DNA from: Candidatus Lustribacter sp.
GTDB lineage: Bacteria; Vulcanimicrobiota; Vulcanimicrobiia; Vulcanimicrobiales; Vulcanimicrobiaceae
Direction of reading: 5' to 3'
NCBI GenBank assembly: GCA_965277805.1
Contig: OZ255842.1
Location: 1,696,001 to 1,760,000, forward strand
DNA: 64,000 bases
Made by a program: the position numbers and the translations under genes. Positions 46,645 to 62,304 of the stretch are shown piece by piece (position 1 is the first letter of the stretch; the number at the start of each line of letters is the position of its first letter). The notes beneath the pieces were generated by a model. The model was not told the DNA's origin. It searched no databases and saw only the letters and a list, made by a program, of their open reading frames with translations.

Positions 46645-46959
46645 TTACTTTTCGGTGTCGGGCTCGGGCGGTGCCGATTCTTCGGCGAGCACGAAGAAGT
46701 CGTCGAGGATCTCTTGCGCGAGGTCGTCGTCGTCGAGCAGCGTGCCCGCGTCATCGGTGACGACGAACTCGTCGGCCGATTCGCTGTAGCAGACCGCGTA
46801 CGCGTTCTTTTCGTCGTCCTCGACCAAACCCACGACCTCGAATTCCAGCGACTGACCGTCATTGGTCTCGATCACGAGGATGTCGCGCAGTTCCAGCGGT
46901 CCGCCTTGGTCCGCGCCCTCACCGTTGCTGCCCCCGGCGCCGTTCGAACCTTCGATGAT
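46645..46959 (-). CDS. DUF1292 family acidic protein, proposed ATC start
   Basis: RDILVIETNDGQSLEFEVVG..YAV; GAGGAG 5 nt before ATC; next to ruvX/mltG. Confidence 0.75.
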   Translation of the reverse strand: MIEGSNGAGGSNGEGADQGGPLELRDILVIETNDGQSLEFEVVGLVEDDEKNAYAVCYSESADEFVVTDDAGTLLDDDDLAQEILDDFFVLAEESAPPEPDTEK

Positions 46960-46972
46960 GACTTCTCCTCAA

Positions 46973-47977
46973 TTAGCGGAGGTAGCGTTCCACGTTGGCG
47001 TTGTGCTCTTCGAGCGTCTTCGCGAACGCATGATGTCCGTTACCCTTGTAGACGTAATACAGAAACTGTGAGTGCACCGGAGCGAAGGCCGCGTCGATCG
47101 ACGCTTTACCCGGGTTGGCGATTGGTGTCGGCGGCAGGCCGGCGTGGCGATAGGTGTTATACGGGGAGTCGATCTCGAGGTCGCGGCGGGTGATCACCGT
47201 GTGGTGTTCGGGAAAGACGTATTCGATCGTTGCGTCGACTTCCAGCGGCATTCCCGCACGCAGCCGGTTGTAGTAGACGCCGGCCATGATCGCCCGTTCG
47301 TCGTCTGCTTGGGCCTCACGCTCGATCAGCGACGCGACCGTGATAACCTGCGGGACGGTGAGGCCGAGCGCTCGCGCCTTGGAAGCCGCATTCGCTGGCA
47401 ACTCGGTAAAAAACTGGTCGGTGAAGATGCGCGCGATGCGGCCCGCGTCGGCGCCGACCGGAACCAAGTAGGTACTCGGGAAGAGGAAACCCTCGAGCGA
47501 CTTCGTCCGCGTACCATCGACAACGAGCCCGGTGCGGGCAGCGTAGCGGTCGAAGCCGCTCGCGTCAACGAGCCGGTGCTCGGCAAGCCGCGACCCCATC
47601 TCGCGCGCCGTGAACCCTTCGGGAAAGGTCACCCAGAGCGCATCCACGGCGCCGGAGACCAGCCGGCGCAAGATCTCGTCGCTCGTTTGATGGGCCGGAA
47701 AGCGGAACTGCCCCGATTGGACGTCGGCCTCGTCGTCGCGGAAGCGAGCGAGCAGGCGCAGTGCGATCGGGTGGGCAACGATGCCCGCGCTTTGCAGGCC
47801 GGCCACCACGTCGCCGAGCGTCGATCCGCGGGGCACGACGAACGTCGCGGGCGCAACCGGAAGCGAACGATCGCCGTACACGGCGTCGCGGAACCACAAG
47901 CCGGCGGCCGCAACGATAACACCGGCAGCGACGACGATGGCGATCGCCGTGTTGATGAGCGCGCGGAGGGACTTCAC
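46973..47977 (-). CDS. mltG: Endolytic transglycosylase MltG
   Basis: TFPEGF, LEGFLFPSTY, ASLIERE, SPYNTY..GLPPTPIANPG. Confidence 0.96.
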   Translation of the reverse strand: MKSLRALINTAIAIVVAAGVIVAAAGLWFRDAVYGDRSLPVAPATFVVPRGSTLGDVVAGLQSAGIVAHPIALRLLARFRDDEADVQSGQFRFPAHQTSDEILRRLVSGAVDALWVTFPEGFTAREMGSRLAEHRLVDASGFDRYAARTGLVVDGTRTKSLEGFLFPSTYLVPVGADAGRIARIFTDQFFTELPANAASKARALGLTVPQVITVASLIEREAQADDERAIMAGVYYNRLRAGMPLEVDATIEYVFPEHHTVITRRDLEIDSPYNTYRHAGLPPTPIANPGKASIDAAFAPVHSQFLYYVYKGNGHHAFAKTLEEHNANVERYLR

Positions 47978-59563: not shown

Positions 59564-60563
59564 CAACGACCTCGCGATACACCGCGGCCGTGGCGGCCGC
59601 AAATCGGTCCCAAGTATACGCGCGCGCAACGGTTTGCCCCTCGGCGGCGCGGCGCCGGTACGGCGCCGGATTGGCGGCGAGATCGGTGAGTGCCGCGCGC
59701 AGCGCGAGCGTATCGTGCGGCGCAAACGTCACCGCGTACGGTGCGAGGATCCCGGGCACCGACGTCGTGCTGGCGATGACCGGCGTTCCCGCGACCATCG
59801 CCTCGAGCATCGGCAACCCGAAGCCTTCCGCCAGGGCCGGATGAACGTAGGCGCTGGCCGCGCGATAGCCGGCGACGAGGTGTGCGTCGCTGAGGTCGCC
59901 CGCGTAGCGCAGTTCGCTGCCGCTGCGCCGGTAGCGCTGCTGCGCGGCGGCATCCGGAGGGCCGGTAATCACGAGGTCCAGTGCGATCGCTTCGGGCAAG
60001 CCGGCCCATGCTTCGTAGAGCGCATCGAGGTTCTTGTGCGGACGATGGTTGCCGGCATACATGATAAACGGCCGCCGCGGCGGGCGCGTTTCGGCGGCCG
60101 CAAACAGCGCCGGGTCGTAACCGAGCGGAACGATGCGGCAGCGTTCGCGCTCGACGCCTAACAGCTCGACGCACGCATCGGCCGTGCGCTCGTCGCTCAT
60201 CAAGAGCAGCGTGGCGCCGCGCAGCATGGGCTTCGCGGCCACCGCGTAAAACGCGGCGGTCGTTTTGCTGAAGAACTGCGGATATTGCAAATGAATCAGA
60301 TCGTGCACCATCGCGACGTACGGTTTGCGGCGGCGCAGCGGGGTAAAGATCGTCGGGTAGTGCGTCACGTCCGGGGCGACGCGATCGATCTCGGCCGGCA
60401 GCCGCAGCTGCTCGTCGAGCCCGAAGTTCAGCCCGCGGCCGACGGCGTGCAGCCGGATGTCGGGCGCAACGCGCGGCAAGCCTTCGACGAGTCCGCGGAC
60501 GTAAGCGCGCACGCCGGCCGACATGCGCGGCGTAATGCGCGCATCGAGCGCCACCTCGATCAT
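59544..60563 (-). CDS. Glycosyltransferase family 4
   Basis: VHDLI, GNHRPHKNL, EGFGLPMLEAM, YTWDRFA. Confidence 0.93.
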   Translation of the reverse strand: MIEVALDARITPRMSAGVRAYVRGLVEGLPRVAPDIRLHAVGRGLNFGLDEQLRLPAEIDRVAPDVTHYPTIFTPLRRRKPYVAMVHDLIHLQYPQFFSKTTAAFYAVAAKPMLRGATLLLMSDERTADACVELLGVERERCRIVPLGYDPALFAAAETRPPRRPFIMYAGNHRPHKNLDALYEAWAGLPEAIALDLVITGPPDAAAQQRYRRSGSELRYAGDLSDAHLVAGYRAASAYVHPALAEGFGLPMLEAMVAGTPVIASTTSVPGILAPYAVTFAPHDTLALRAALTDLAANPAPYRRRAAEGQTVARAYTWDRFAAATAAVYREVVDGSSGA

Positions 60564-61555
60564 CCACCGATCTCGCGATAGACGTCGGCGGTGAGGCGCG
60601 CCGTGCGTTCCCACGTCAGTTCGCGCGTCGCCGCGCGCGCCGCATCGGCCGCCGCGCGGGCGGCGTCCGGATCGTCGAGCTGGCTCGCCAGCGCATCGCG
60701 CCAAGCCGTTATATCGCTCGCTTCGACGAGCACCGCGTGCGGCGCCAGCACGCGCGGCATGGCGGCGCTCGATGCGACCACGCGCGCGCCGTTGCGCATC
60801 GCCTCGAGCAGCGGCAAGCCGAAGCCCTCGCGCAGCGCCGGATGCGCGTAGACGGCAGCGCCGGCATACCAGCGCCGCAGGTCGTCGTCCGTGCGCTCGC
60901 CGAGAAACACGACCTCGCCCGGGCCACGCACCGCTTGCAGCGCCGCGTCGGGCGGTCCGCTGAGGACGAGATCGACCGCACGTCCCTCACCCAATCCGGC
61001 CCAAGCGGCGATCAACGTCGCGAGGTTCTTGTGCGGGCGGCGATTGCCGACGTAGAGCACGTAGGGTCGCGGGTGTCCGGCCGGCGCCGCAGCCGCCGGC
61101 GGCTCGTCGTAACCCAGCGGGATCACGCGCACGCGCCGCGCGTCCGCACCGAGAAAGCGTTCGAGGTCGTCGACGGTCGCGTCGTCGTCCGTGATCACGG
61201 CGCGTGCGGCGCGCACGACCGGTGCGACGAGCGCGCGCACGTACGGCGCCACCCGGCGCTTCACGAACTGCGGATAGTGCAGGTCGATCAGGTCGTGCAC
61301 GGTCACGACGTAACGGCACGGCACGAAGCGCGGCACGAACAGCGTGGGGAAGTGCGCGATCCGCGCGTGCGAGCGCGCGATGGCGAGCGGCAAACCGACT
61401 TGCTCGGCCAGATCGAAGTTATCGCCGCTCCCGACCGCGACGAGATCCACGTCGGGCGCGACGTGCGGCAGCCATTCGCGCAGCTTGCGCGAGTAGTTGA
61501 GCACGCCGGCCGACATGTGCGAGGTCTCGCGCGCATCGAAGGCGAGGCGAATCAT
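60560..61555 (-). CDS. Glycosyltransferase family 4 (tandem paralog)
   Basis: TVHDLI, GNRRPHKNL, EGFGLPLLEAM, TWERTA. Confidence 0.93.
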   Translation of the reverse strand: MIRLAFDARETSHMSAGVLNYSRKLREWLPHVAPDVDLVAVGSGDNFDLAEQVGLPLAIARSHARIAHFPTLFVPRFVPCRYVVTVHDLIDLHYPQFVKRRVAPYVRALVAPVVRAARAVITDDDATVDDLERFLGADARRVRVIPLGYDEPPAAAAPAGHPRPYVLYVGNRRPHKNLATLIAAWAGLGEGRAVDLVLSGPPDAALQAVRGPGEVVFLGERTDDDLRRWYAGAAVYAHPALREGFGLPLLEAMRNGARVVASSAAMPRVLAPHAVLVEASDITAWRDALASQLDDPDAARAAADAARAATRELTWERTARLTADVYREIGG

Positions 61556-62304
61556 CGGGCCGCTCTCAACGCGCGCAGCTGCACCGCCAGCGGGTAGAGG
61601 GCCGAGTACCAGGCGACGAACACCCCGCGCCAGCCATCACGCCACGCGCCGTAGCGCGTCCACAGCCAGGCGAAGCGCAACGGCAGTTTCGCGGCCGCGA
61701 ACGCGCAAGCGAGTCGCGAACCGCGCAGCGCCGCCGCTTCGATCTGCGTGTAGCGCGCGAAGCGCTCGCGATACGACGCGACGGTCGGATACGAATCGTG
61801 CACGATCATTCCGGGCAGATCGGTTAGCGTGCCTTCGACGACCCAGCGTTCGTGCAGGTCGGCCGCGCCGCCGACGCTGTTGGGCACCACGTGCGCCCGG
61901 TCGACGCGAAAGCAGCGCACGAGCCGTTCCGCCGACCACCCGGCGGCACGCACGGCGCGGCCCGCGAGCATCGTCACGCGGCGCACCCGATAGCCGTCGG
62001 CGCGCGAGAGATCGCCCGACAGCGCCGCGGTCAACTCATCGCTCAGCAGTTCGTCGGCATCGAGCATGAACGCATAGGGCGTCGTCACGCGAGCGAGCGC
62101 GTAGCGCCGCGCTTCGACGTATCCCGTCCACGGACGCATTTCGACCTGCGCTCCGCTGGCGCGCGCCACATCCGCCGTTCCGTCGATCGACTCGGCATCG
62201 AGAACGAAGACCGCGGCATTTGCCGGCACGCGGCCGAGCGTCCGCGCTAGGCGCGGCGCTTCGTTCTTCGTCAGGACGACGACGGTGAGTTGGCCGTCGT
62301 TCAG
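61552..62304 (-). CDS. Glycosyltransferase family 2 (WaaE/KdtX-like), proposed CTG start
   Basis: [14 protein letters not shown] upstream of the first [23 protein letters not shown] overlap with the pyrG stop. Confidence 0.9.

Follow-up and report, generated by a model that had tools for sequence, protein, structure and literature searches.

Probable near-cognate start codons in core genes of Candidatus Lustribacter and other Eremiobacteria

The 64,000-nucleotide stretch analysed here (the window), from the genome of an uncultured Candidatus Lustribacter soil bacterium, carries five genes on its minus strand, recO, ybeY, phoH, a family-2 glycosyltransferase (GT2) gene and a gene for a small acidic protein, whose conserved N-termini meet a CTG, ATC or ATT codon where a start codon is expected. 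We consider these codons, and similar ones in dozens of other genes of the genome, to be genuine near-cognate starts (CUG, AUC, AUU and AUA), most likely read by an ordinary fMet initiator tRNA in a clade that tolerates them, and put the probability of this reading at roughly 0.85. It draws on the positions of the codons, their conservation, their homology to canonical starts in relatives, the absence of alternative starts and a canonical initiation machinery, all of which we observed.

The genome under study (G000) is a single contig of 5.53 Mb with 64% G+C, in which the window spans G000:C1:1696001-1760000. We count ATG, GTG and TTG as canonical starts, and CTG, ATC, ATT and ATA as the near-cognates considered. 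When the minus-strand frames of the five genes were read from stop to stop, each near-cognate codon proposed in an earlier sequence-only reading of the window lay at its claimed coordinate. The five genes, and two upstream partners that bear on them, are as follows.

46645..46959, minus strand: small acidic protein gene (earlier label DUF1292), proposed start ATC at 46959-46957, with a second ATC at 46956
48399..49139, minus strand: recO, proposed start ATC at 49139-49137, with RecO_N and RecO_C Pfam domains
51593..52090, minus strand: ybeY, proposed start ATT at 52090-52088, Pfam YbeY 123.3 bits
52094..53038, minus strand: phoH (ybeZ-like), proposed start CTG at 53038-53036, Pfam PhoH 302.6 bits
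61552..62304, minus strand: family-2 glycosyltransferase (GT2) gene, proposed start CTG at 62304-62302, Glycos_transf_2 37.4 bits
49139..49507, minus strand: cdd, a putative cytidine deaminase gene named by sequence reading, 49507 being its estimated coding onset
62301..63998, minus strand: pyrG (CTP synthase), with Pfam CTP_synth_N and GATase, continuing past the window; upstream partner of GT2

The label DUF1292 found no support, as the product of 46645-46959 matched zero Pfam families at E<=0.01 or even at E<=10; we therefore speak of a DUF1292-like gene. That no ATG, GTG or TTG fits the conserved N-termini, as the earlier reading had it, holds for all five genes with one exception: recO has in-frame GTGs at 49298 and 49289, about 50 codons upstream and deep inside cdd. 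Gene callers, which in that reading would truncate all five, might therefore over-extend recO instead.

Most of the five codons have a recognizable start signal, either a clear Shine-Dalgarno (SD) run or an overlap with the preceding stop. The phoH CTG is the first codon past an in-frame TGA (53041-39) and lies 6 nt downstream of AAGGAG (53050-45); the DUF1292-like ATC is 14 nt past the mltG stop and 5 nt behind GGAG (46968-46965). The recO ATC and the cdd stop TAA (49141-49139) have one A in common, a 1-base overlap of the form TAATC, and in GT2 the CTG overlaps the TGA that ends pyrG, giving CTGA. The signal is weak for ybeY (GGAG followed by 11 nt), whose ATT is in frame with phoH and stands one codon past its stop TAA. 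Coding potential points to the same places: a codon-usage gene finder trained on G000, which called 4,852 open reading frames (ORFs) and estimated coding onset blind to start codons, put the onset exactly at 53038 for phoH, 62304 for GT2 and 49139 for recO, and at 46965, two codons before the ATC, for the DUF1292-like gene; its estimate for ybeY (52015) was imprecise. In recO (RecO_N 74.6 bits, RecO_C 66.7 bits), RecO_N profile position 3 aligns three residues past ATC 49139, that is, at residue 6 of a read beginning two codons earlier, and the GT2 domain begins at residue 17 of the stop-to-stop read, in which the first canonical codon is residue 36.

Initiation at the next downstream canonical codon, with the upstream N-terminal similarity being an untranslated remnant, has in our view only a slim chance of being correct. 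Such codons do exist 10-37 codons downstream in all five genes (GTG 46875 in the DUF1292-like gene, GTG 49109 in recO, TTG 52051 in ybeY, GTG 52927 in phoH and GTG 62229 in GT2), and their use would cost only 13 residues of YbeY and 28 of the DUF1292-like protein. It would, however, strip RecO_N of its beginning and the GT2 fold of 19 residues. Both coding potential and conservation of the amino acids continue as far as the near-cognate codon. Nor are the downstream codons kept in relatives: GTG 49109 is gtc in three of seven same-genus loci, and in three relatives (G001, G002 and G005) the first 45 codons of phoH hold no canonical codon.

These comparisons draw on 30 relatives of the class Eremiobacteria, phylum Eremiobacterota (Vulcanimicrobiota), family Baltobacteraceae, the nearest being Candidatus Lustribacter: seven congeneric genomes, 11 further genera within family f1, five genomes of family f2 and seven of family f3. 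The DNA around each match was read in the relatives, and same-genus counts give the loci that keep the codon out of those that cover the site; two unpublished genomes (G015 and G030) contribute single rows, and no statement rests on either. Aligning orthologues at each site, as the sequence-only reading had suggested, showed that the near-cognate codons are kept within the genus. Both ybeY ATT and recO ATC occur in 7/7 same-genus loci, as does the GT2 CTGA, which also occurs in four other f1 genera; phoH CTG stands behind AAGGAG in five of seven, the remaining two being one GTG and one site masked by N, and further named metagenome-assembled genomes (MAGs) are concordant for the phoH start. 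The DUF1292-like gene has ATC ATC (ATT ATC in G005) behind GGAG or AGGAG in all eight same-genus loci.

Beyond the genus, the near-cognate codon lies at, or a few codons from, the canonical start of orthologues in GT2, ybeY, recO, phoH and the DUF1292-like gene, and likewise in two genes outside the window, rsfS and rpsA. Seven other genera have ATG, GTG or TTG at the aligned ybeY position, overlapping the phoH stop, and 16 recO loci of other genera have ATG or GTG two to four codons upstream of the aligned position. The GT2 site reads ATTAA in three genera and GTGA or TTGA at the identical position in one f1, 5/5 f2 and 2/2 f3 loci, with one locus ambiguous. For phoH, CTG recurs 7-8 nt behind an SD-like run in five other genera, and ATG takes its place in 5/5 f2 genomes. 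The DUF1292-like gene has ATC behind AGGAGG in four other genera, ATT in four of five f2 genomes, and ATG at the same place in six other f1 genera (G014, G018, G012, G008, G010 and G016). We made no use of the cross-family fall-off in these per-gene tables: it is biased and uninformative about phylogenetic distance, because the genes were picked for being non-canonical in G000.

Four genes outside the window were followed through the relatives in the same way. The rsfS sequence 'GGGAGA aacgct CTG CCT GAA', again with a clear SD run, is found in 8/8 genus loci, and CTG behind an SD run in seven other f1 genera; one further relative (G011) has GTG, and the homologous codon is ATG in 5/5 f2 genomes, as 'ATG CCT GAA' in three of the five. 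In pth, the codon is ATC in six and ATA in two of eight genus loci, one to four variable codons past an in-frame stop, with ATA in f2 genomes and ATG or TTG in two f3 genomes. The rpsA start position is ATT in 6/6 genus loci and ATC or ATT in most other f1 genera, several with TAA two to six codons upstream; it reads 'ATT TTG' in f2 and ATG in 7/7 f3 genomes. Finally, in valS, an essential gene, ATT is confined to G000, G003 and G004, and the other four genus members have GTG; the canonical start was lost recently here.

Ahead of the near-cognate codons, the sequence behaves like non-coding DNA. In ybeY, the ATT follows GCC, CCC or ACC, depending on the locus, and the stretch before the pth ATC or ATA differs in both length and sequence between loci. 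To stop-codon read-through or fusion with the upstream protein, for example a PhoH-YbeY product sharing one frame across a single TAA, we give even less weight than to downstream initiation. Several pairs (ybeY, pth, valS, rpsA, MR_MLE and an Exo_endo_phos gene) do have the same frame as the upstream gene, a stop and 1-9 codons apart; such cases are over-represented because the detection rule needs a nearby in-frame stop. The stops are, however, mostly TAA or TAG, ybeY overlaps phoH out of frame (ATGA, GTGA or TTGA) in other genera, and the frame differs from that of the gene upstream in GT2, recO, rsfS, trpF and others.

The odd codons could also be sequencing or assembly errors, given a single-contig assembly, and we regard this as next to negligible. 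Logan contigs of two runs (X1 and X2) show 0 differences over 46693-47897 and 60815-62400, and the contig of run X2 shows 0 differences over 48007-49632, so three of the five sites are reproduced without difference; all four runs used are contigs, and the two runs are one sample, possibly the source of the assembly. For the ybeY and phoH codons there was no difference among the matches listed, although the long zero-difference pieces from X1 and X2 miss both starts. The check for base errors envisaged earlier, made here on contigs, thus shows none at three codons, and the other two rest on conservation in independent MAGs: for each gene, the same codons occur in 5-8 same-genus loci and in named MAGs from several studies.

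The habit extends far beyond the five genes. For the genome-wide tally that the earlier reading had envisaged, N-termini were defined by Pfam, and two rankings of the 4,852 ORFs were made. One scored the coding evidence that precedes the first canonical codon (statistic T, with T>8 in 31 of 4,852), the other the absence of a plausible canonical codon within >=10 codons of the onset (111 ORFs). Among the 120 ORFs from both rankings examined with Pfam, the domain begins upstream of any plausible canonical start in 44. Examples, given as domain start versus first canonical codon, are rsfS (30 vs 106), pth (9 vs 30), trpF (100 vs 135), mreB (28 vs 42), recG (29 vs 62), YmdB (29 vs 59), queA (9 vs 15) and valS (28, at profile position 10, vs 45); the group also contains hisB, a sigma factor and a response regulator. 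Many of the other 76 ORFs are uninformative and are not refuted. With rpsA, phoH, ybeY and the DUF1292-like gene, for which the relatives supply the evidence, the set comes to 48 genes.

As an unbiased check on distance, the identical pipeline was run on 1.02 Mb of an f3 genome (G026) and on five 1.02-Mb chunks of G000. In G026, 31 of 931 ORFs were raw candidates (3.3%), compared with 1.6-3.1% for the chunks of G000, and Pfam confirmed eight of the 31, including tmk, tag, smc, ydjC, glycerate kinase and infC. The confirmed rate of 8/931, or 0.9% of ORFs, is the same as in G000 (44/4,852), and the habit is therefore at least class-wide. By this count, at least about 1% of genes would be without any canonical start, both in G000 and in another family of the class.

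We wondered whether the machinery that guards start-codon choice is altered. Initiation fidelity depends on the initiator tRNA, the anti-SD sequence, the P-site purines of 16S rRNA, initiation factor 3 (IF3) and the products of RsmB, RsmD, KsgA and Fmt. The earlier reading had offered a variant IF3, fMet-tRNA or anti-SD as a cause, and none of the three was found. The initiator tRNA is single-copy and canonical: C1xA72 is mismatched, and the anticodon stem holds three G-C pairs; the 16S 3' end, GGATCACCTCCTTTCT, is canonical; and IF3, aligned to that of E. coli, keeps Y75, R99, D106, R131, R133 and E134, with V93 replaced by L, at what we take to be its fidelity positions. By Rfam alignment and motif checks, 16S rRNA is canonical at G1338/A1339 and in its 790 and 1400 regions, and genes for an RsmD-like protein, KsgA, RsmB and Fmt are present. 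The near-cognate start of infC is the means by which IF3 autoregulates its own synthesis. It is ATA in all f1 genomes (8 nt behind GGAG in G000), ATC in f2 and ATT in f3, and its presence in all three families implies that IF3 still disfavours such codons.

A clade-wide relaxation of fidelity through altered IF3, initiator tRNA, 16S P-site or anti-SD, or rRNA methylation, making near-cognates roughly equivalent to ATG, is accordingly unlikely, although less so than the alternatives considered above. It would account for the high incidence of genes without a canonical start (no fewer than 44 ORFs out of 4,852 in G000, and 8 out of 931 in G026), for the inclusion of essential genes (rpsA, valS and pth) and for the free swapping of start codons between genera, as where the valS GTG is lost only in G000, G003 and G004; the variable IF3 C-terminal tails of 25-70 residues found throughout the class might also be read in its favour. 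Every readable known determinant is nevertheless canonical, about 99% of genes keep canonical starts, and the retention of ATA, ATC or ATT in infC is sensible only if IF3 still discriminates. With the machinery canonical and infC near-cognate, a broken fidelity machine is unsupported. The tails themselves are variable and of low complexity in all IF3 proteins of the class; the IF3 of G000 (G000:C1:3912135-3912803, L069:1252-1920) has one that is rich in His, Glu and Asp and about 50 residues long.

The preferred reading, of tolerated near-cognate starts, places the affected genes in a particular context. Of the 30 genes with an assigned start, 26 have it between an overlap with, and 50 nt past, the upstream same-strand stop, compared with 57-63% of confident canonical starts. 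The overlaps take the forms CTGA (GT2, HAD, recG and ChrA), ATAG (trpF and DUF3237) and TAATC (recO); mreB and ALGX are without a close upstream gene in the gene set used. Among genes with a single candidate codon, CTG is the most frequent (11), followed by ATT (4), ATC (3) and ATA (2).

Several points weigh against this reading. The evidence for the starts is that of DNA sequence, and a look for RNA runs turned up none. The junction enrichment is modest (p ~0.01 by a rough normal approximation), and the upstream-gene calls behind it come from a home-made gene finder; in the genome-wide screen, Pfam coordinates were read by eye from best-stretch columns only, and 13 of the 44 Pfam cases have a canonical codon farther upstream if more than 45 nt of overlap with the preceding gene is allowed. 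Of the 48 genes, 38 hold at least one of CTG, ATT, ATC and ATA within the interval allowed; frequency-matched decoy sets average 34.8, and 17% of 300 such sets reach 38. An SD run >=4 precedes a near-cognate in 13 of the 48, compared with 9.1 +/- 2.2 in decoys, with 6% of sets reaching 13. Neither excess is significant. Genome-wide, an SD run is no commoner before CTG, ATC or ATT than before other codons. Within-genome statistics thus fail to fix the identity of the codon. Ten of the 48 genes have none of the four codons in the interval: GH15 and mreB are off-by-one artefacts of the interval, one has candidates just upstream of it, and about seven are left, two with an ACG overlapping TAA (TAACG) and two with GTAA; these genes may use ACG, GTA or something else. 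Lastly, the baseline for what is normal comes from the literature (two confirmed cases in E. coli), as the genomes that we ran are all within the class.

Three of the Pfam-confirmed genes with neither a canonical start nor any of the four near-cognates in the interval are the following.

G000:C1:5006900-5008159 (L306)
G000:C1:5329666-5330571 (L315)
G000:C1:3714686-3715939 (L178)

Among them, TAACG occurs in the FAD oxidase and OppC genes, and a GTAA overlap in the OppC and Pyr_redox_2 genes.

Other within-genome measures discriminated poorly. SD use is weak across the genome: an ATG near the coding onset has an SD run >=5 in 9% of cases and >=4 in 23% (at 4-8 nt), and about 30% of confident starts overlap the upstream gene. 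A per-codon measure anchored on SD runs showed no enrichment for CTG, ATC or ATT and is uninformative as a genome-wide detector; a strong SD stands before only 9% of onset ATGs. CTGA junctions lacked a nearby canonical codon in 21 of 145 cases, compared with 7-13% for decoys (CTA or GTA at TAA or TAG stops), a tally of NTGA and 1-nt overlaps that is non-discriminating partly because the decoys contain real cases with the start one codon off. Measured against the upstream regions of confident canonical starts, T showed no excess (0.64% vs 0.8% at T>8); this null was contaminated and its regions were longer, and we therefore replaced it with the Pfam checks. An unsupervised expectation-maximization over 61 codons as potential starts was dropped, as rare sense codons (GCT and CTA) took up probability and the noise floor was high.

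How might a ribosome find such starts? Scanning-reinitiation models describe how overlapping genes are coupled. We suggest that the weak-start genes mostly lie inside operons, at or just past the stop codon of the preceding gene, and that the ribosome could arrive by either of two routes: directly, at an SD run of normal spacing (phoH, the DUF1292-like gene, rsfS and mreB), or from the upstream frame, through a stop-start overlap or a very short gap (GT2, recO and ybeY), where coupling would aid initiation. In both, fMet-tRNA would initiate at the weak codon, presumably with lower and IF3-sensitive output. Near-cognates would then be tolerated members of the start-codon set in Eremiobacteria, with genera switching among ATG, GTG, TTG, CTG, ATT, ATC and ATA at homologous positions. 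A broader and more tentative possibility, which we think less probable than not by some way, is an enlarged start set throughout Eremiobacterota, and perhaps in neighbouring high-GC soil phyla, comprising 1-3% of genes with CUG, AUC, AUU or AUA and possibly ACG or GUA at junctions, relaxed by an unrecognised feature, drifting near-neutrally and forming an IF3-sensitive regulon. Such a regulon would include rpsA (S1), peptidyl-tRNA hydrolase and aminoacyl-tRNA synthetases, and reinitiating or IF3-poor ribosomes are one candidate cause.

The kind of start is already known, whereas its scale and lineage here are new. In Deinococcus, N-terminal proteomics placed dnaA at ATC and rpsL at CTG (Baudet et al. 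2010, PMC2830850), and that account adds Deide_03051 (CTG) and infC (ATA) and raises the question of whether frequent near-cognate initiation is confined to Deinococcaceae. The likeness is close: in both groups, housekeeping genes are without a usable ATG, GTG or TTG, ATC or CTG is conserved at the homology-defined N-terminus, and annotation pipelines mis-call the genes. They differ in that the Deinococcus cases are a handful and proven by N-terminal proteomics, whereas those here number dozens per genome, belong to another phylum and are read from DNA; they also include rpsA, pth, valS, rsfS and mreB, and switching between canonical and near-cognate codons is documented between genera.

E. 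coli is the other point of comparison. According to one study, it has two confirmed genes with near-cognate starts, infC and pcnB (AUU), and in a reporter AUA, AUC, AUU and CUG give 1-2% of AUG output (10.1101/063800). The infC gene here is alike in starting with ATA (ATC in f2, ATT in f3), and other genes use the same class of codon; but where the weak start is in E. coli a device dedicated to the regulation of two genes, here it would be spread over about 1% of genes, any regulatory role in them, such as the tuning suggested in the earlier reading, being putative. Termination-reinitiation is also described as a means of translational coupling at -4/-1 stop-start overlaps (PMC10666635), and the CTGA, ATAG and TAATC junctions share its geometry with a weak codon replacing ATG. 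The overlaps so described use ATG, GTG or TTG, in contrast to the CUG and AUH found here, and mreB and ALGX do not fit the arrangement. A narrow literature search found nothing on a near-cognate start habit in Eremiobacterota.

If the reading of tolerated near-cognate starts is correct, gene callers limited to ATG, GTG and TTG would truncate, over-extend or miss about one gene in 100 in the phylum, core markers such as rpsA, pth, recO, ybeY, rsfS and mreB among them, and protein databases and MAG completeness metrics would be distorted. Another phylum would answer the question raised for Deinococcus, at larger scale, and the homologous sites at which canonical and near-cognate codons replace one another would form a natural series for gauging the strength of selection on start-codon identity. 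A cultured member of the same family, Vulcanimicrobium alpinum, exists, and the prediction is therefore directly checkable.

Some ORFs with a similar appearance were set aside. In prfB (G000:C1:5350380-5350560, locus L327 and upstream), a short frame stops at CTT TGA C and the PCRF domain lies in the +1 frame, the classical +1 frameshift, and the gene was excluded. Also excluded was a DsbA-like ORF (G000:C1:4807955-4808509, L192) with an in-frame TGA in place of the first CxxC cysteine (…SDVV-TGA-PFC…); it is probably a selenoprotein, and tRNA-Sec and selA are present in the genome. An AhpC-like ORF in G026 (L470:10221-10565) is cut alike, at about profile position 42. Several N-terminally truncated ORFs were left out of the near-cognate set; C-terminal-only Pfam matches were seen at L153, L186, L316 and L329 in G000 and at L495, L481:13240-13944 and L468 in G026, in the families DoxX, aromatic-ring hydroxylase C-domain, MFS, LepA, EF-Tu domains 2-3 and ATP synthase gamma, and these may be frameshifts, pseudogenes or assembly errors.

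Two further observations concern the window. In the gene run, cdd is followed directly by recO; era was not seen between them, and no search for it was made elsewhere. On the plus strand, at 3651-4868 (L345), the Pfam match of an MFS_3 transporter opens at the first residues past an in-frame TGA, and its first canonical codon is 18 codons in, with zero near-cognates in between.

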